The notes: generated by a model not told the origin, from the sequence alone. 34,665 bases of DNA from a virus (IMGVR_UViG_2698536302_000011:1-34665), one strand, 5' to 3'; numbered from the stretch's first letter, positions 1 to 16,287 are shown. Program-made: numbers and translations.

Positions 1-1119
1 TCAAATAACCAACTTAACCCATTCCTGACCTCGAGTATCGTTATAGCGATCGGTGGTTGCCTGGACTTTATGTCCTAGTAATGTTTTTGTATCGATACCC
101 TGTGCACGGTACAACCGTTCTGATAGAGAGCGTTGTTCATGAAATGTTGGCGGAGTTTTTCCTGCTGGTGGAATTATCCCAGCCAGATCCCGTGCTTTGG
201 CAAAGTAGTCGCTCAGGTTGTCTTTACTCATCGGCTTCGGTTGTTTCTGGTGCCGACTATGGATTAGATATGGACTTAATATTCTGTCTCGGCACCCATC
301 AATAACTTCTTTTAACGTTATCCCAATGGCATCACAGCGTAGTGTAAGCGGTAACGCCAGACGCATTCCGGTTTTTCCCTGGGTGATATGCAAGTGTTCG
401 TTCCACACATCTGAAAAACGCATGTGGCAAATGTCATCACGGCGCTGACCAGTAACAATCGCAAGAAGCATTGCGTTACGGATAAAGTGTTTTTCAGGCG
501 TTGCATTGTAAATTTTTTGCCAGTCTTCCATGGTGAGCCTGGCTCTGGTTACTTTAGGGATCGGTTTACGGGTAGCCTCCGGAGGATTCCATCCAGGAGG
601 AACTTCCCCTGCATGCTGTGCTTCTTTATAAATATCAACCCATAATCCACGATTTACTCTCGCTGTGCTGACCATGTCTTTATCCAGCCACTCATCCAGT
701 ATTAATGCAAAGTCTCTTACTTCCAGTTCTTTCAATGGGTGGTTTCCCAGACGGGAAACCAGGTATGCAGCCATTCGAGTTTTTTCTTTGTGAGTTGTAG
801 CTGCAATATCTCCATTTTTCAGTCGCGCGTCCTGTATTTTCAGATATCGATCAACCCATGCCTTTAATCTGATGCCCCGACGTTTTGTTGCTGACGGACT
901 TTCATCAATTTTGCGCATGAAATATTCAGCTTCTGCTGCAGCTATTCGCTGATTGGCTGTGGAAGCGATTTTTTCTGCTTTGCCTTTGTCTGTTCCGAGA
1001 CCGTGAAATTTTCCAGTCACAGGGTTTTTATACTGGTAGTAAACCCTGCCAGTTCTGCGATCAAACTTTTCGTAAAGACCGGTTACGTCAGTGCTGTTTT
1101 TTCGTGGCCTCGGTGACAT
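1..1119 (-). CDS. int: Tyrosine site-specific integrase (lambda Int-like)
   Basis: 372-aa ORF; C-terminal catalytic region resembles lambda Int (HxxR...PTFHELRSL-like 'PPTFHEQRSLSERLY', 'LLGHK', 'RYNDTRGQEW'); stop TGA at 1-3; prophage-end position with xis overlapping its start. Confidence 0.9.
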   Translation of the reverse strand: MSPRPRKNSTDVTGLYEKFDRRTGRVYYQYKNPVTGKFHGLGTDKGKAEKIASTANQRIAAAEAEYFMRKIDESPSATKRRGIRLKAWVDRYLKIQDARLKNGDIAATTHKEKTRMAAYLVSRLGNHPLKELEVRDFALILDEWLDKDMVSTARVNRGLWVDIYKEAQHAGEVPPGWNPPEATRKPIPKVTRARLTMEDWQKIYNATPEKHFIRNAMLLAIVTGQRRDDICHMRFSDVWNEHLHITQGKTGMRLALPLTLRCDAIGITLKEVIDGCRDRILSPYLIHSRHQKQPKPMSKDNLSDYFAKARDLAGIIPPAGKTPPTFHEQRSLSERLYRAQGIDTKTLLGHKVQATTDRYNDTRGQEWVKLVI

Positions 1120-9448: not shown

Positions 9449-9550
9449 TCCAAATCTGAATAATTAAATCCAGCACTGTAAATAAAATTTAATCCTTAAC
9501 CGGAGGGATTTCTGCACCCTCAGAACATCAGGAGGCCGCCCGAAAGGGCG

Positions 9551-10087
9551 GTGGAGATAATAATGGAAATAACTAAAGAACGATTATTGGAAATAGCAAA
9601 TCTTAGTGAAAGGGCATTAAGTGATGGGAGGATTATTTCTCCTGATGCTTATGAATCAGTTACAAGTATAGAAATAATAACGATGGCCAGGATGCTTCTT
9701 GGTTGCCTCAAAAAAGAATATAAAAAAAAGGTGGATAGCAATGCTAATATATATGATATTTTGGACAGTTGGGGGGCTTGGGCTGCAGCTGGAAATAGTT
9801 CTATCAACTGGCAGCAAGTGGCTGATAAATATAAAGATGTAGTACCTCATGGTAAGAAATTACGCCGTCAGTGTGGCAACGATGAAGGTCGTATGATTGA
9901 TACCTGCATGTTGAAGCTTAAACAATATAGAATAGATGACTATGAGTTAATTATCGCTCATTTTGTTATAGGTATATCTTTGCGTACAATAGCACGAAGG
10001 TACAAATGTTCAGATGGAACAATAAGAAAGAATATACAACTTACAATGGGAGTATTGTTAGGATTGTCTTTTTATGTGCAATTATAG
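9551..10087 (+). CDS. Q82-type antitermination protein homolog
   Basis: C-terminal ~110 aa align to the phage 82 / DLP12 QuuD family as recalled ('WGAWAA', 'QCGNDEGRMIDTCMLKLK', 'DDYELIIAHFVIGISLRTIARRYKCSDGTIRKNIQ'); ~70-aa N-terminal extension; a shorter start at M45 (~9683) is possible; lies in low-GC DNA. Confidence 0.5.
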   Translation: MEIIMEITKERLLEIANLSERALSDGRIISPDAYESVTSIEIITMARMLLGCLKKEYKKKVDSNANIYDILDSWGAWAAAGNSSINWQQVADKYKDVVPHGKKLRRQCGNDEGRMIDTCMLKLKQYRIDDYELIIAHFVIGISLRTIARRYKCSDGTIRKNIQLTMGVLLGLSFYVQL

Positions 10088-10092
10088 ATATA

Positions 10093-10572
10093 TCACATGA
10101 GCCTTGTTATGTCTTTTAGACGCGACCAGGTAGTATAAAATTTTTTAAATGTAATAAGCAGGAAAAAAATTCCCACTTGGAGTAATAGTTGGGCATATGT
10201 GTGCTCGTCGGCATCTTTTACTAGTGGGAATTTAAACTTTAGTGTATCAGGGAAAAATAATAAAATGATAAAAATAATACAAACTGATAGTAACCATCCC
10301 ATAGTGGAGTGCATTTCTTCGGTCAGTTTTTTCAAATAACCAGTTTTTCCTATATTTCTAATTAGCGTATTATCTCTAGCTGAAGCAATCAAGGTAAGCG
10401 AACCTAAAACAAAGCCAAATAATATCCCAGAAAATGTAGAAACGGCCGAAGCGATTGGCTGAATTTGTGCAAAATTTAGCTTTGCAGAAAGAGGCCATGC
10501 GATGATACAAAAAACAACAGAGGCTAAATTATAACCATAACTGTACAAAGTTATCAATTTCCCCTTTTTCAT
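10093..10572 (-). CDS. Small four-TM membrane protein; candidate RexB-like effector
   Basis: 159 aa with four hydrophobic helices; immediately downstream of the 304-aa gene (16-bp gap) in low-GC DNA; segment after TM2 'LIASARDNTLIRNIGKTGY' resembles lambda RexB 'LIGSRTRRLAKIREYGY' as I recall it. Confidence 0.45.
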   Translation of the reverse strand: MKKGKLITLYSYGYNLASVVFCIIAWPLSAKLNFAQIQPIASAVSTFSGILFGFVLGSLTLIASARDNTLIRNIGKTGYLKKLTEEMHSTMGWLLSVCIIFIILLFFPDTLKFKFPLVKDADEHTYAQLLLQVGIFFLLITFKKFYTTWSRLKDITRLM

Positions 10573-10587
10573 ACCATCGCTCCAAAA

Positions 10588-11502
10588 TTAATCAACTCTT
10601 TGATTGGCTACTCCAAAGTATGCCTTCAATTCATCATCTTTACTATCTTTTGCAAGAGTTAAGGCGCTCCAAATGCTGCCAACTAATGGATACCTACCTC
10701 CAAGTTCAACATCTGTGTAGTAGACTAATTTGTCTGCTACAAGATCGATAGGATGCTGTACACCGGTCTCAATGTCTTGGGTTTCTAGTTTAAGTTTTTC
10801 AACCTCAAAAGTCTCTAGTGTTTCTTTAAAGGCTCTTTTTAGTTGAGAACCTAGATAGCGAGATTCAGGATCTTCAGAACGACTATCCCCACGTAATGTA
10901 AGATTTACTTTGGCAGAATTAGTACCATTTAGAGTGGCTATCAATGCATTGTTGAAGTTATGTTCAACATCCTCATATAGTTGCACATTCTTTGGCCGAG
11001 CGATACCGATTTCTAGAGTTTTGATTCGAACTTCATTACGCATCAACCACTTTAAACTACTGGTCTGAATGATGGGATTAACAGTTGTATTTTGTGAACT
11101 GTTGGAAAGATATTTACTTAATAGCAACCAGCCATAACAGAGTCTGTTTCGTTGAATTATTAAAACTGAGTCTTGGGTATAAAAATGAAAATAAGCTTTT
11201 TCTAATAAGTTTTCATTGATTTCAAGTTTAATTTCTCTTTCTTCACCTCCGGCTACAGCAACATGAGGGAGATTATTGGTTCTGTGTTTTCCTATAACTC
11301 CCCTGAAACCATAGTCGGTTCTTTCCATGAAGCGCATTTCAACTAGTTTATTTCCTATTTTACGTACAGTTTTGTCTCGGCCTTCGCTGTATGACTCAAA
11401 AATTTTTGAAAAAACAGCTTCAGGTGAATTAACTCCTGCATTTGTATCAGTGCTTATAGTGTGACATTGATAAAAATCGAAGAAAAAGCGCTTGCTAGCC
11501 AT
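10588..11502 (-). CDS. Soluble ~300-aa protein of unknown family; candidate RexA-like sensor
   Basis: 304 aa, no TM segment; first gene of a two-gene leftward operon with the four-TM protein; size and order mirror rexA-rexB; no primary-sequence match I can assert. Confidence 0.4.
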   Translation of the reverse strand: MASKRFFFDFYQCHTISTDTNAGVNSPEAVFSKIFESYSEGRDKTVRKIGNKLVEMRFMERTDYGFRGVIGKHRTNNLPHVAVAGGEEREIKLEINENLLEKAYFHFYTQDSVLIIQRNRLCYGWLLLSKYLSNSSQNTTVNPIIQTSSLKWLMRNEVRIKTLEIGIARPKNVQLYEDVEHNFNNALIATLNGTNSAKVNLTLRGDSRSEDPESRYLGSQLKRAFKETLETFEVEKLKLETQDIETGVQHPIDLVADKLVYYTDVELGGRYPLVGSIWSALTLAKDSKDDELKAYFGVANQRVD

Positions 11503-11950
11503 TGCAAAAATTTCCTGTAAAAAATAATTACATACTTAAGATACTACAAAGAATAATGCGTACGCAAAATTTTTTGTTGAGTAGAATATGTTCGCGGGGT
11601 ATTTTTCGTTAAGATATAATTACCATGGTAACTTTTGCGTTGGTAATGCATTATGTGGTGGAGAAAAAGAGAGAGTCTTATCTTTAAATTATCGCCAGCC
11701 TATATGACTATATGAGTAGTATTTAGATGGGAAATTGTTGAGTTATTGAAAGGAACCATAACCTTTATGTAAAATTACTGCGGGTGCTTGAGGTTATCTG
11801 TCTCAGGCATGCCACCAAAAGGCAGATAGAGAAAAGCCCCAGTTAACGTTACGCGTCCTGCAAGACGTTTAACATTAATCTGAGGCTCAATCTATGAACG
11901 GCAAATCTAGGTTAGCCTCTTACGTGCCGAAAGGCAAGGAGAAGCAGGCT

Positions 11951-12106
11951 ATGAAGCAGCAAAAGGCGATGTTAATCGCCCTGATCGTCATCTGTTTAAC
12001 CGTCATAGTGACGGCACTGGTAACGAGGAAAGACCTCTGCGAGGTACGAATCCGAACCGGCCAGACGGAGGTCGCTGTCTTCACAGCTTACGAACCTGAG
12101 GAGTAA
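11951..12106 (+). CDS. hok: Hok/Gef-family type I toxin
   Basis: 51 aa 'MKQQKAMLIALIVICLTVIVTALVTRKDLCEVRIRTGQTEVAVFTAYEPEE' aligns to Hok ('...[25 protein letters not shown]'); the track ORF extends in frame upstream to 11894 (possible mok-like leader). Confidence 0.85.
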   Translation: MKQQKAMLIALIVICLTVIVTALVTRKDLCEVRIRTGQTEVAVFTAYEPEE

Positions 12107-12173
12107 GAGACCAGGTGAGGGAGAAATCCCTCGCCACCTCTGATGAGTCAGGCATCCTCAACGCACCCGCACT

Positions 12174-12201
12174 TAACCCGCTTCGGCGGGTTTTGTTTTT
12201 T
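12174..12201 (+). terminator. Rho-independent terminator after hok
   Basis: CCCGC-TTCG-GCGGG hairpin followed by TTTTGTTTTTT. Confidence 0.6.
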
Positions 12202-13603: not shown

Positions 13604-13969
13604 ATGACTGAACGCATAGAATTTGTTTTGCCTTACCCGCCAACGGTGAACACTTACTGGCGACGTCGTGGCAGCACATATTTTGTATCAAAAGCCGGTG
13701 AGCGTTATCGCCGTGATGTGGCGCTTATTGTTCGCCAGCAGCGGCTGAAATTAAACCTGTCCGGAAGGCTGGCGATAAAGATTATTGCAGAGCCACCGGA
13801 TAAACGTCGTCGTGACCTGGACAATATCCTGAAAGCACCACTGGATGCGCTGACGCATGCCGGACTACTCATAGACGACGAGCAGTTTGATGAAATCAAT
13901 ATTGTGCGCGGTCAGCGCGTTCCTGGGGGGCGGCTGGGCGTGAAGATTTACAAAATTGAGAGTGAGTGA
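13604..13969 (+). CDS. rusA: RusA-family Holliday junction resolvase
   Basis: 121 aa; 'VLPYPPTVNTYWRRRG...', 'PDKRRRDLDNILKAPLDALTHAGLLIDDEQ' match the RusA family. Confidence 0.85.
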   Translation: MTERIEFVLPYPPTVNTYWRRRGSTYFVSKAGERYRRDVALIVRQQRLKLNLSGRLAIKIIAEPPDKRRRDLDNILKAPLDALTHAGLLIDDEQFDEINIVRGQRVPGGRLGVKIYKIESE

Positions 13970-14520
13970 TCGTAAATATGATATACCCGGAAATTACAGG
14001 CAAAAGCGGCGAGCATTTACGTCTAAAAACGCTGGAAGCCGTCTGGATCCAGGGGAAATTACGGATGTGGGGGCGTTGGTCGTATATAGGTGGTGGCAAA
14101 CCAGGAAATATGTTCAATCAGTTGCTGGCATCCAAAAAACTGACAAAAACCGCAATCAATGAAGCCCTGCGTAGAATCAGGGAGTCAGGGATTGATAAAC
14201 CAGAGCTGGAAGCATTCTTGCGAGAGATGATCGCTGGCAGACAGAAGAGCTGGTTGTCTCACTGTACTGATGCAGAGGCGTTACGCATTGATGGGGTGAT
14301 AAGTAAAGCGCTTGCACGTTATCCTGGATTGATTGATATCCTGCGGCAAAGGTACGAAGGGCGGGGGATGAGTAAACGCAAAATGGCTGAATTGTTGAAT
14401 GAGGTGCACCCGGAATGGTGTTTTAGTACATGCGAAAAGCGAATTGCTAATTGGTTAGCTGTTGCTGAATATGCGCTATACATCCCTATGCGAGAATCGT
14501 TTGCTCAAAAAATGTCTTGA
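13966..14520 (+). CDS. Putative late-gene regulator in the Q position (family uncertain)
   Basis: 184 aa directly after rusA; followed by the same terminator + small-ORF + methyltransferase unit that follows the lambda-Q-type fragment in the paralogous copy; no confident motif match. Confidence 0.35.
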   Translation: MIVNMIYPEITGKSGEHLRLKTLEAVWIQGKLRMWGRWSYIGGGKPGNMFNQLLASKKLTKTAINEALRRIRESGIDKPELEAFLREMIAGRQKSWLSHCTDAEALRIDGVISKALARYPGLIDILRQRYEGRGMSKRKMAELLNEVHPEWCFSTCEKRIANWLAVAEYALYIPMRESFAQKMS

Positions 14521-14604
14521 TTTTTTACGCATAAACTGTTTCAATCCAGCTACGCTTCGCAAAGCTATACCGCGAGGCGAATAGCAGACATGGACACCTG
14601 AAAG

Positions 14605-14628
14605 AACCCGCTTTATGCGGGTTTTTTT
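14605..14628 (+). terminator. Rho-independent terminator
   Basis: ACCCGC-TTTAT-GCGGGT hairpin plus T7 run. Confidence 0.6.
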
Positions 14629-14658
14629 GTGCCCGAAAAGCGGTACAGGACGTTAAAT

Positions 14659-15169
14659 GCGCTGGTGGTTGCGAATGCCGGTCTTTCAGCTTGCTGGCTT
14701 TTTCGACAAGAGGTATTGGTATGTCACGTTAACCGGAAAAGGGAAAAAGGCATGCTAAAACAGCAGGATATGACCGAAACCGCCAGAGTGGTGTTTAATG
14801 AATTAAGCATCACCGAACCGGCGACCGTCGGGGAAATTGCGCAGAATACTTACCTTTCACGCGAACGCTGCCAGTTAATACTGACTCAGCTTGTTATGGC
14901 GGGTCTGGCAGATTATCAGTTCGGTTGTTACAGACGCCTTCCGCAGTGAAGGCTTTTTAATTTGTGGTAATGGGCGGCTGGTGGGTGTTAGCGGCACCTG
15001 CCAGCCATCTGCTCATGCGTTGGGGTCACAAGCAAACCTCAGGCCCATCTGCTTTGCGCAAAAGCGGTATGAGCCTATCAGAGAAGTGCTTATTGATCTA
15101 TGATTAATACTGTAAAAATATCCAGTTGTGAGTTAATCAACGCTGATTGCCTGGAGTTTATCCAGACCT
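14659..15169 (+). repeat. Direct repeat unit A (small ORF + 5' end of the methyltransferase gene)
   Basis: Near-identical to 15722-16232 (period ~1063 bp); ends at the ambiguous base 15170; its methyltransferase-start sequence is identical to that at 16297 onward. Confidence 0.7.
14752..14949 (+). CDS. Small winged-helix-like protein (repeat copy 1)
   Basis: 65 aa 'MLKQQDMTETARVVFNELSITEPATVGEIAQNTYLSRERCQLILTQLVMAGLADY...'; near-identical copy at 15814-16011. Confidence 0.45.
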   Translation: MLKQQDMTETARVVFNELSITEPATVGEIAQNTYLSRERCQLILTQLVMAGLADYQFGCYRRLPQ

Positions 15170-15170
15170 N

Positions 15171-15589
15171 TCCAGTATCCGGATGGTAAGCCGCCGGTAT
15201 GGGCAAAGTGTACGAAAGGTGTGTATCCGTCTTACTGGGAAGAATGGAAAAAAGTCAGGGAGGTGGTAAAAGTTGCCTGTCCGGAGTGTGGCGGAAAGGG
15301 TGAGGTTTCCACCGCCTGTAAGGATTGCCGTGGGCGTGGTGTCGCCATTCATCGTGAAGAGTCGGTAAAACGTGGTATGCCTGTTATCAGAGACTGCCAG
15401 CGTTGTGGTGGTCGTGGCTATGAAAGACTACCATCAACGGAGGCATTTAATGCTATATGCGAGGTGACAAACCAGATAACACGCGCGTCATGGGAAAAAA
15501 CAGTTAAGAAATTTTATGATGCGCTGGTGACCCGGTTTGATATTGAAGAAGCATGGGCTGAGCGGCAGTTAAAAAAGGTAACTAGGTAA
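15171..15589 (+). pseudogene. Lambda-Q-type antiterminator, C-terminal part only (5' truncated at the N junction)
   Basis: 'CPECGGKGE...CKDCRGRGVA...CQRCGGRGYERLPSTEAFNAICEVTNQITRASWEKTVKKFYDALV' aligns to the C-terminal half of lambda Q; the reading frame is open back to the N at 15170 where unrelated sequence begins; no N-terminal half is present. Confidence 0.55.
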
Positions 15590-15669
15590 CAAGGTTGATT
15601 TTTCCGGAATCTGTGGTAAATTCGTCATAACGATGGGCGTTTTATGCCTGACGTTAGAAGAGTTTCTAC

Positions 15670-15694
15670 AACCCGCCGCCGAGCGGGTTTTTTA
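15670..15694 (+). terminator. Rho-independent terminator
   Basis: ACCCGCCGCCGAGCGGGT hairpin followed by a T run. Confidence 0.55.
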
Positions 15695-15721
15695 TGACTG
15701 AAATCGCGTCAGTACAGTAAA

Positions 15722-16261
15722 CGCGCTGGTGGCGGTGAATACCTGTCTTTCAGCTTGCTGGCTTTTTCGACAAGAGTTATTGGTGTGTCACGTTAACCGG
15801 AAAAGGAAAAGACATGCTAAAACAGCAGGATATGACAGAAACCGCCAGAGTGGTGTTTAATGAATTAAGCGTTACCGAACCGGCGACAGTCGGGGAGATA
15901 GCGCAGAATACTTACCTTTCACGCGAACGCTGCCAGTTAATACTGACTCAGCTTGTTATGGCGGGTCTGGCAGATTATCAGTTCGGTTGTTACAGACGCC
16001 TTCCGCAGTGAAGGCTTTTTAATTTGTGGTAATGGGCGGCTGGTGGGTGTTAGCGGCACCTGCCAGCCATCTGCTCATGCGTTGGGGTCACAAGCAAACC
16101 TCAGGCCCATCTGCTTTGCGCAAAAGCGGTATGAGCCTATCAGAGAAGTGCTTATTGATCTATGATTAATACTGTAAAAATATCCAGTTGTGAGTTAATC
16201 AACGCCGACTGCCTGGAATTTATCCGGTCGTTACCCGAAAATTCTGTTGACCTGATAGTCA
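15722..16261 (+). repeat. Direct repeat unit B (variant paralogous copy), running into the N gap
   Basis: Same unit as 14659-15169 with scattered substitutions; its methyltransferase 5' end differs at several positions from the copy at 16297. Confidence 0.7.
15814..16011 (+). CDS. Small winged-helix-like protein (repeat copy 2)
   Basis: 65 aa; differs from copy 1 by I->V in 'NELSVTEP'. Confidence 0.4.
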   Translation: MLKQQDMTETARVVFNELSVTEPATVGEIAQNTYLSRERCQLILTQLVMAGLADYQFGCYRRLPQ

Positions 16262-16287
16262 NNNNNNNNNNNNNNNNNNNNNNNNNN
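16262..16287. other. Assembly gap (run of 26 N)
   Basis: Contiguous n characters; the flanks overlap redundantly, both containing the methyltransferase 5' end. Confidence 0.95.

Follow-up and report, generated by a model that had tools for sequence, protein, structure and literature searches.

Which role can be assigned to a gene of the Q antiterminator family that lies in the early region of a prophage with another gene at the Q position? The question is raised by an ORF on the plus strand, at positions 9551-10087, of a viral sequence of 34,665 nucleotides (IMGVR_UViG_2698536302_000011:1-34665; this whole stretch is called the window below). An earlier interpretation made from the DNA alone (the sequence-only reading) described it as an orphan homolog of Q82-type antiterminators and offered three options, namely a remnant moved with a low-GC island, a regulator with a different target, and a decoy. 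In textbook Q cassettes, the late promoter is located directly 3' of the Q gene.

Position of the gene in the prophage

By its gene content, the window is a lambdoid prophage of the Rac/Qin-like kind. Its 5' part contains, in this order, an integrase, an exonuclease, a repressor, YdaS/YdaT, replication genes, DUF977, DUF4406 and DUF4752, followed by the gene under study. On the 3' side come two backward genes, hok/sok, DUF968, RusA, DUF1133, a methylase, and the lysis and structural genes. The distance of about 8 kb to the lysis genes noted earlier is correct.

The presence of a separate gene at the Q position could be confirmed as well. It occupies positions 13978-14520 on the plus strand (a longer start is at 13966), matches DUF1133 with E 6e-103 and is a distant relative of PF06530 (weak match, E 1.9e-6). 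Directly 3' of it is its own promoter/terminator block (14516-14628, plus strand), with the motif CTACGCTTCGCAAAG at 14550-14564. Further downstream, a lambda-type Q is represented by its C-terminal half (15221-15589, plus strand; PF03589, E 6.5e-32), which precedes a lambda-like late promoter, a AACGATGGG pause motif and a terminator (15595-15693, plus strand). The segment with this fragment is bounded by N bases (15170 and 16262-16287), has a duplication of about 580 bp at its flanks, and may be an assembly join.

The long-form Q gene and its product

The ORF is real and has two possible starts, an ATG at 9563, which is preceded by GGAG 7 nt upstream and yields a protein of 174 amino acids (9563-10087), and a GTG at 9551, which yields 178 amino acids. 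RefSeq annotates an identical E. coli locus from the ATG under the name 'antiterminator Q family protein', and hence the gene, as a gene, is already annotated by homology. The GC content of the gene is 0.35 compared to 0.50 in the flanks, in agreement with the low-GC island described earlier.

Residues 66-172 match PF06530 (E 2.8e-30; 105 bits, the curated cut-off being 26), showing that the similarity is genuine, and the protein also matches phrog_79 (E 2.5e-32). Using phmmer, residues 70-151 were aligned with residues 19-101 of the Q21 chains 6jnx and 6p18 (E 1e-3). PF06323 is absent among the profile matches at E<=1, and PF03589, the Q-lambda family, gave no match for the ORF. According to Yin and co-workers, PF06530 is the Q21 family and PF06323 the Q82 family (PMC9388147). 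Thus, of the homology proposed for the C-terminal two thirds, the QuuD-type part stands (33% identity with QuuD over 107 amino acids) and the Q82-type part does not.

The homologs fall into two groups, long forms of 170-185 amino acids and short forms of 111-126 amino acids; the respective proteins are referred to as long Q and short Q. The short forms align to residues 62-168 of the long Q with 53-62% identity (58% for the closest relatives). In the window, the Q domain (PF06530) is encoded at 9746-10066 on the plus strand and carries the putative helix-turn-helix motifs SLR and DGTIRK, which are common to the late-Q relatives. An alignment of this domain from 22 long and 22 short forms has 18 invariant and 23 nearly invariant columns. 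SLR aligns with S93-K94-H95 of Q21, the DNA-contact residues of which have been described (PMC6606751), and the DGTIRK helix is found conserved in the short Qs as well. In Q21, the N-terminal part of the Q domain forms a ring at the RNA exit channel (PMC6606751). Weak matches of the long Q to helix-turn-helix and ECF-sigma profiles were also found. An AlphaFold2 model based on a 44-sequence alignment is too poor (pLDDT 54 overall and below 50 in the N-terminal module) to bear out the sigma-region-4-like helix-turn-helix with which proteins of the Q21 family read the Q-binding element, a point that weighs against the reading in terms of the cargo promoter described below.

The N-terminal extension of about 60 amino acids (9563-9745, plus strand) is absent from the late-Q relatives. 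It resembles phrog_3323, a family of unknown function (E 4e-16), and nothing matched it in a Pfam search. Only two further relatives came out of an exhaustive search, the N-terminal parts of the unrelated phage proteins P0130 and P0133; two compositional repeat proteins returned by the same search were discarded, and a word-indexed search yielded just fragments of the long-Q gene itself. The module was not found by TBLASTN as a separate upstream ORF in short-Q phages, and a comparison with the DUF7167 gene, which replaces it in a related prophage (see below), found nothing. The start methionine of the short Qs corresponds to asparagine in 22 of 22 long forms, which suggests that the long protein is the likely product.

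Distribution of homologs and pattern of selection

Long forms, with 65-97% identity, were found in E. coli and Salmonella only; no deposited phage genome with a long form was found. A 197-aa 'long' form in Rosenbergiella turned out to be an ORF-calling artefact overlapping a methylase gene. In SfII, mEp460 and several Stx1a/Stx2a phages (for example, Stx1_499 and Stx2a_1447), no Q other than a short Q was found, and short-Q loci are also present in prophages of at least 11 genera, with no second Q nearby. A second Q, of the DUF1133 or the lambda type, is located 3' of the long-Q cassette wherever the sequence extends far enough, and the long Q co-occurs with the two types equally. Related prophages with the gene before the late operon, which the sequence-only reading would have taken as a sign of local rearrangement, exist for the short forms, with the same kind of backward cargo genes in between; the long form was never seen at the late-operon position in about 40 loci.

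We calculated dN/dS for eight long-Q genes by the Nei-Gojobori method. The ratio is 0.26 overall, 0.35 for codons 1-60, 0.28 for codons 61-100 and 0.16 for codons 101-165, indicating that the entire protein is under purifying selection. The segment that forms the ring in Q21 is thus still selected (0.28) and is not obviously needed for pure DNA binding, which is an observation against a function confined to the cargo promoter. Most copies are intact and are distributed over E. coli and Salmonella with at least six cargo types; frameshifted copies (L057-L059) and fragments (P0121-P0128) also exist. A remnant, one of the options offered earlier, is disfavored by ratios of 0.16-0.35 over the whole gene. 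The synonymous rate climbs toward the cargo (dS 0.20, 0.40 and 1.42), and, as judged from these comparisons, the 3' half of the gene moves together with the cargo.

Boundaries of the cassette

Comparisons with related prophages delimit an exchangeable low-GC cassette of 2.2 kb (9553-11764), which comprises the long Q, the two backward genes (the cargo) and a conserved site. In a related prophage lacking the cassette (L127), homology to the window ends at 9552 and restarts at 11765, at the -10 element of the hok promoter; its slot is filled by small plus-strand genes (DUF7167 and others) and contains no GCGTACGC. In a prophage with a different cargo (L002), homology breaks at 10057 and restarts at 11766. 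The GC content is 0.31-0.36 throughout the cassette versus 0.50 outside. A long-Q and a short-Q locus (L039 and L060) give one uninterrupted alignment with 74% identity, which starts at codon 62 of the long Q and spans the whole cargo. By these alignments, the long Q, the cargo and the site are a single exchangeable unit, which goes back to the late-control unit of short-Q phages, with the N-terminal module added. The gene has therefore moved with the island in a stronger sense than had been proposed, as part of one discrete low-GC cassette together with the cargo and the site motif, and 'orphan' is not an appropriate description of a member of such a Q-cargo-site cassette.

The cassette is preceded by a 63-nt leader (9490-9552, plus strand) with a GAAA-tetraloop hairpin at 9535-9552, which belongs to the prophage backbone and lies outside the cassette. 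The leader is kept in every context of the long-Q gene and is shared by L127, and its predicted fold is not significantly better than that of shuffled sequence (z -1.5). Copies with >=98% identity occur in about 2,300 E. coli genomes, most of which lack the long Q; at the megablast level, a query of leader plus gene was covered by at least 80% in only 68 genomes. Genomes with related prophages that have the leader but not the long Q show that the gene is dispensable for this prophage type. An 'empty site', in which the 3' end of Q would be joined to the hok flank, was found in none of 5,426 E. coli genomes, because other small genes fill the slot in prophages without the cassette.

The hok/sok locus (11746-12201, plus strand) always comes next after the long-Q cassette and consists of a promoter (11746-11775), the sok/hok leader (11782-11956), the hok CDS (11951-12106) and a strong intrinsic terminator (12175-12201), all on the plus strand. 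The distance from the site to hok is 270-400 nt in all long-Q loci but one, and nin-type genes come after the hok terminator. The idea that the hok terminator is a displaced late terminator came from the likeness of CTTAACCCGC...GCGGGTTTT to the short-Q terminator and was abandoned: in plasmid hok loci the homology ends before the terminator, yet no homology reaches beyond the hairpin, which makes this idea speculation. An isrK-like match is weak (24 bits at a threshold of 50) and led only to the comparison with AntQ given below.

Cargo genes

The cargo gene adjacent to Q (cargo gene 2; 10093-10572, minus strand) encodes a membrane protein of 159 amino acids (phrog_8552), and cargo gene 1 (10588-11502, minus strand) encodes a DUF6731 protein of 304 amino acids (PF20505, E 2.2e-12; phrog_7651). 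Cargo gene 2 is convergent with Q, the stop codons being 5 nt apart. As these two stop codons leave no room for a terminator, transcripts of the cargo would run antisense into Q; no plus-strand terminator is predicted within the cargo of the window. The module convergent with Q had been called RexAB-like. Convergence holds, and the resemblance to RexAB amounts to a weak match of cargo gene 2 to the RexB profile of PADLOC (E 0.0015) and to gene order and sizes similar to those of rexA-rexB. The DUF6731 protein matched nothing in PADLOC or among PDB sequences.

Several types of cargo in the Q loci have a match among known or candidate defence systems, and the types found include PD-Lambda-5 A/B, an NsnA/PD-T4-2-like protein, PDC-M53 A/B and PDC-S33. 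Pairs of a protein of about 300 amino acids and a membrane protein of about 180 amino acids also recur in several kinds, and one cargo family was found behind both long and short Qs.

A conserved site beyond the cargo

In functional short-Q phages, one to three backward genes come directly after the stop codon of Q; beyond them lie a non-coding region and then the late genes, which are stx, a methylase plus tRNAs, or a holin. The 12-mer GCGTACGCAAAA is invariant in the region 3' of the cargo and is found at the same place in long-Q loci with other cargo; its sole copy in the window is at 11558-11569. In 36 distinct short-Q contexts, it is part of a plus-strand block conserved at >=90%, with TAACGCGTACGCAAAA, about seven variable bases and TA...TGtTAAGAGTgGT; about 25 nt past the block there is a GC-rich hairpin with a run of T. 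The order is thus site, TATTGT/TATCGT, 7 nt, TAAGAG, terminator, and we treat this arrangement as the probable late promoter cassette of the clade. The conserved blocks are what is established here, each assignment of a -35, a -10, a start or a pause hexamer being tentative.

The window contains the core of this motif as a 13-bp site, TGCGTACGCAAAA, at 11557-11569, beyond the cargo and 1.47 kb downstream of Q, and so the earlier statement that there is no qut-like context downstream does not hold. The site includes the 10-bp palindrome TGCGTACGCA and, within it, the palindrome GCGTACGC (11558-11565). In nine distinct long-Q contexts, TGCGTACGCAAAA is invariant and is the sole conserved block of the region. 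At the flanking position, all long-Q loci have T, which makes the 10-bp palindrome TGCGTACGCA perfect; the short-Q loci have C, with a single Erwinia locus as the exception.

We analyzed two samples of Q loci for the presence of GCGTACGC. From viral contigs 80 loci were fetched, 76 of them with enough downstream sequence, and in all 76 the octamer occurs exactly once downstream of Q, at a distance of 1.3-3.8 kb, and is absent from about 6 kb upstream of Q. In the second sample, with one genome per species (21 loci from Enterobacter, Klebsiella, Raoultella, Shigella, Buttiauxella, Citrobacter, Rosenbergiella, Erwinia, Lonsdalea, Providencia and Pseudocitrobacter), the motif lies downstream of Q in all 20 loci with enough sequence. 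Together, the order Q, backward cargo, GCGTACGC is observed in 96 of 96 such loci, which are mutually related but have about 39 different cargo-side sequences, the expected number of occurrences of an 8-mer being an estimated 0.09 or so per 6 kb. Rosenbergiella shows Q, backward cargo and site ahead of holin, endolysin, spanin and terminase, in this order.

The TA...TGtTAAGAGTgGT block and the terminator following the site are not conserved in the nine long-Q contexts, and no terminator is present near the site of the window; one long-Q type (L043) retains TATTGT-6 nt-TAGGAG, which is near the short-Q block. A -10-like hexamer, TAGAAT (11582-11587, plus strand), is located 12 nt past the site of the window and is a candidate for a rightward promoter or a pause element. 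It is not conserved across long-Q loci, which have no -10-like element at a fixed spacing from the site. No rightward promoter in the vicinity of the site came out of a consensus promoter scan, which likewise fails to detect the late promoter of a functional Stx2a phage.

A putative promoter of the cargo

A putative leftward promoter of the cargo (11538-11567, minus strand) is formed by a -35 hexamer TTGCGT (11567-11562), a spacer of 18 nt and a -10 hexamer TATCTT (11543-11538). The -35 hexamer falls inside the conserved site. Of 39 cargo-side sequence types, 32 have the minus-strand pattern TTGCGT-16..18-TAnnnT, namely 27 of 33 with a short Q and five of six with a long Q, and the stretch holding TAnnnT is cargo-specific and otherwise unrelated DNA. 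Transcription of the cargo genes thus seems to depend on a promoter with its -35 inside the Q site. Three observations weigh against this promoter being the target of the long Q: conservation of the site could partly reflect the -35 role alone, cargo of the NA37 type has no good leftward -10, and the gene is dispensable and occurs in frameshifted copies.

Possible functions of the long Q

We tentatively favor, at slightly less than even confidence, a cassette-linked regulator acting at the 13-bp site, most likely on the cargo promoter. The long-Q protein is the putative ligand of this site; we infer its DNA binding, as well as repression and any antitermination, from the comparisons described above. 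The source unit would be the one found in mEp460, SfII and some Stx phages, in which Q is parted from its presumed own promoter by backward cargo, often defence genes, and the DNA site of Q would also supply the -35 of the cargo promoter. This unit seems to have been placed here within the early rightward operon, upstream of hok and DUF1133. Upon induction, the long Q would be produced from early rightward transcription and would contact the site via its conserved helix-turn-helix. The main effect would most likely be on the leftward cargo promoter, shutting off cargo transcription that would otherwise proceed antisense into the Q gene; this shut-off would also relieve antisense transcription into the long-Q gene itself. 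Loading onto the rightward RNA polymerase in the manner of a Q protein would be a possible second effect. Since the late promoter/pause/terminator block was lost and the site overlapping the -35 was kept, an effect on the cargo promoter is the one we favor. Among the three options offered earlier, a different target is accordingly the best supported, the likely target being the 13-bp site and not the late promoter after DUF1133.

The main alternative is a two-step relay, which seems to us rather unlikely. The long Q would be a working antiterminator that loads at a rightward promoter by the site (for example, at TAGAAT), and the modified RNA polymerase would pass the hok terminator (12175-12201) into DUF968-RusA-DUF1133, so that early expression would get past the backward cargo and reach the late Q. 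Purifying selection on the whole Q domain, including the segment of the exit-channel ring of Q21, would fit such an activity, as would the fact that the closest relatives are late Qs acting at the same motif and that L043 keeps TATTGT-6 nt-TAGGAG. In all loci checked, hok, the terminator and the second Q come after the cassette, and the silence of the promoter scanner is uninformative given its failure on the Stx2a late promoter. However, TA...TGtTAAGAGTgGT, so well conserved in the 36 short-Q contexts, is not conserved in the nine long-Q contexts, and neither a -10-like element at a fixed distance nor a terminator near the site is seen. Moreover, relatives that lack the cassette, and with it any long Q, share the hok terminator and the genes downstream, and early transcription may cross the cargo anyway, no plus-strand terminator being predicted there.

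It is still less likely that the gene is a functionless passenger, that is, a late-Q gene brought into the early region by Q-cargo recombination and serving only as a homology arm for the exchange of cargo. Its dispensability in about 2,300 genomes with related prophages and the frameshifted copies would be consistent with this, and the steep rise of dS toward the cargo, with a nearly identical 5' half, fits a recombination anchor. A passenger does not, however, account well for a dN/dS of 0.16 in the most diverged part (dS 1.4), for copies that are mostly intact across E. coli and Salmonella and at least six cargo types, or for a 13-bp site conserved among otherwise unrelated sequence.

The decoy option, in the form of exclusion of other phages, we consider improbable. 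The long Q would then be part of the defence cargo and would occupy, or prematurely fire, the late promoters of incoming phages with the same site (SfII, mEp460 and Stx-type phages). The recognition helix and the core site are indeed common to the long Q and those phages, the gene adjoins candidate defence cargo, and AntQ of Gifsy-1, when over-produced, is toxic and has a global effect on termination (PMC4825925). Expression in the lysogen is doubtful, though, since no promoter moves with the gene and the leader is backbone of the early operon; cargo transcription would be antisense to the long Q, and the base flanking the core differs, being T in all long-Q loci and C in nearly all short-Q loci.

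That the long Q is the true late antiterminator of the prophage, working at the promoter after DUF1133 (14516-14628), is highly implausible: although CTACGCTTCGCAAAG aligns there with the short-Q site and the terminator and the DNA beyond it share homology with their counterparts in short-Q phages, the promoter-proximal part is unlike the short-Q type, a search of the window found its single copy of GCGTACGC elsewhere, DUF1133, itself a distant PF06530 relative, is directly upstream of that promoter, and the long Q accompanies lambda-type Qs equally.

Action of the long Q at the site and the cargo promoter may be a special case of a switch that operates across the clade; this generalization is possible, but we hold it with considerable reserve. 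Q and its site would bracket swappable defence cargo across Enterobacterales, and one contact would flip the unit. In lysogeny the cargo would be on and Q silenced by antisense transcription; in lytic growth the cargo would be off and rightward transcription on. The long form would be a re-use of the unit in the early operon, with Q turned into a repressor or into the first tier of a two-Q cascade.

A large clade, Shiga-toxin phages included, has variable cargo between Q and its site. If the site serves both the late and the cargo promoters, this would provide a simple rule by which prophages silence their own defence genes when lytic, would mark a defence hotspot, and would bear on the Q-dependent expression of Shiga toxin in short-Q Stx phages. 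In that case, the long form would be a natural experiment showing what is left of Q and its site once the antitermination target is removed. In a limited literature search we found no description of the long-form subfamily, of the placement of a long Q upstream of a second Q, of the Q-cargo-site architecture with the site as the cargo -35, or of such a defence hotspot.

Comparison with known systems

The Q protein of phage 21 (6P18, 6JNX) shares PF06530 and sequence similarity (E 1e-3) with the long Q, but has 162 amino acids and a long loop within its helix-turn-helix. Its site consists of two direct TGAGCA repeats immediately 3' of Q, with no intervening cargo (PMC6606751). In the annotated genome of phage 21, pR' has a -35 TTGACA, the subsites ATTGAGCA and AATGAGCA, a -10 AACACT, the start and a TAAGCT pause element, with a terminator no more than 50 nt away. 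This layout (site, -10, start, pause TAAG.., nearby terminator) resembles the block of the short-Q relatives. Compared to the full Q21 cassette, the long-Q cassette has the site core only, the late promoter/pause block and the terminator not being conserved.

QuuD (YbcQ) of the E. coli K-12 prophage DLP12 also belongs to PF06530 and, like the long Q, precedes a backward gene (nmpC) before the lysis genes, but it has 127 amino acids, lacks the N-terminal module and occupies the late-Q position. AntQ, the Q-like protein of Gifsy-1 that perturbs termination globally when over-produced, sits at the normal late-Q position, unlike the long Q. The Q protein of phage 82 (PF06323) represents a separate, non-homologous family (PMC9388147) and shares just the general role of a lambdoid Q.

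Closest to the window are the short Qs of SfII, mEp460 and the Stx1a/Stx2a phages, which have the same helix-turn-helix motifs; in their loci, as in the window, the cargo begins immediately past the stop codon and is followed by a single GCGTACGC...AAAA overlapping a leftward -35. In contrast to them, the protein of the window has an N-terminal module of 60 amino acids and is not the only Q of its prophage, its gene is part of the early region, where hok takes the place of late genes downstream, and the site stands without the conserved promoter/pause block and terminator.

Left edge and cargo of the variable slot

The left edge of the variable slot is marked by a 63-nt intergenic leader (9490-9552), which contains a hairpin with a GAAA tetraloop (CCGCCC-GAAA-GGGCGG). 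Among 5,426 complete E. coli genomes, approximately 2,300 carry the leader at an identity of at least 98%, always in unannotated DNA of related prophages; when its fold was compared with that of shuffled sequence, the stability was not significantly higher.

Many of the cargo islands, that is, the backward-facing genes between Q and its downstream site, consist of a protein of about 270-345 aa followed by a multi-pass membrane protein of about 160-200 aa. The islands with this layout that were considered belong to the related Q loci L060, L103, L039/L016, L066, L096, L101, L043 and L073. These two-protein pairs fall into at least four sequence families, PDC-M53 being the only one present in PADLOC, and the pair in the window, formed by the DUF6731 protein and the 159-aa membrane protein, is laid out in the same way.

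Candidate regulatory elements downstream of the cargo

In the cargo type found in the window, the stretch from the conserved site to the hok promoter includes an extra segment of about 130 nt. Within it lies a perfect 12-bp palindrome, TTACCATGGTAA (11620-11631), closely preceded by a perfect TATAAT. The stretch directly past hok, including the terminator (12115-12196), matches the Salmonella Gifsy-1 small RNA IsrK below threshold (24 bits, the gathering score being 50), with both hairpins aligned. In Gifsy-1, the Q-like gene antQ lies upstream and IsrK downstream.

The promoter following the DUF1133 gene contains CTACGCTTCGCAAAG (14550-14564), a sequence that can be aligned with the AACGCGTACGCAAAA site found in short-Q phages. 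The DUF1133 type and the short-Q type are also homologous (88-89%) in their terminators and in the DNA that follows. This similarity suggests that DUF1133 proteins may use a related site.

Duplicated segment

N bases occur at three places in the window (7815, 15170 and 16262-16287), and a segment of about 580 bp, 93% identical to the matching stretch of a reference locus, is present twice (14617-15169 and 15683-16261). Between the two copies lies a lambda-type Q gene fragment that encodes a C-terminal part of the protein and is accompanied by a lambda-like late promoter and a terminator of its own. The region does not have the look of clean prophage sequence; it resembles an assembly join, or else a repeat that is collapsed or mosaic.

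Comparison with DLP12

In the E. coli K-12 prophage DLP12 (locus L104, 1957-5614), quuD is followed by the backward-facing porin gene nmpC, which is split by IS5, and then by the lysis genes. DLP12 quuD, a more distant member of PF06530, shares the order of Q, backward cargo and late genes.
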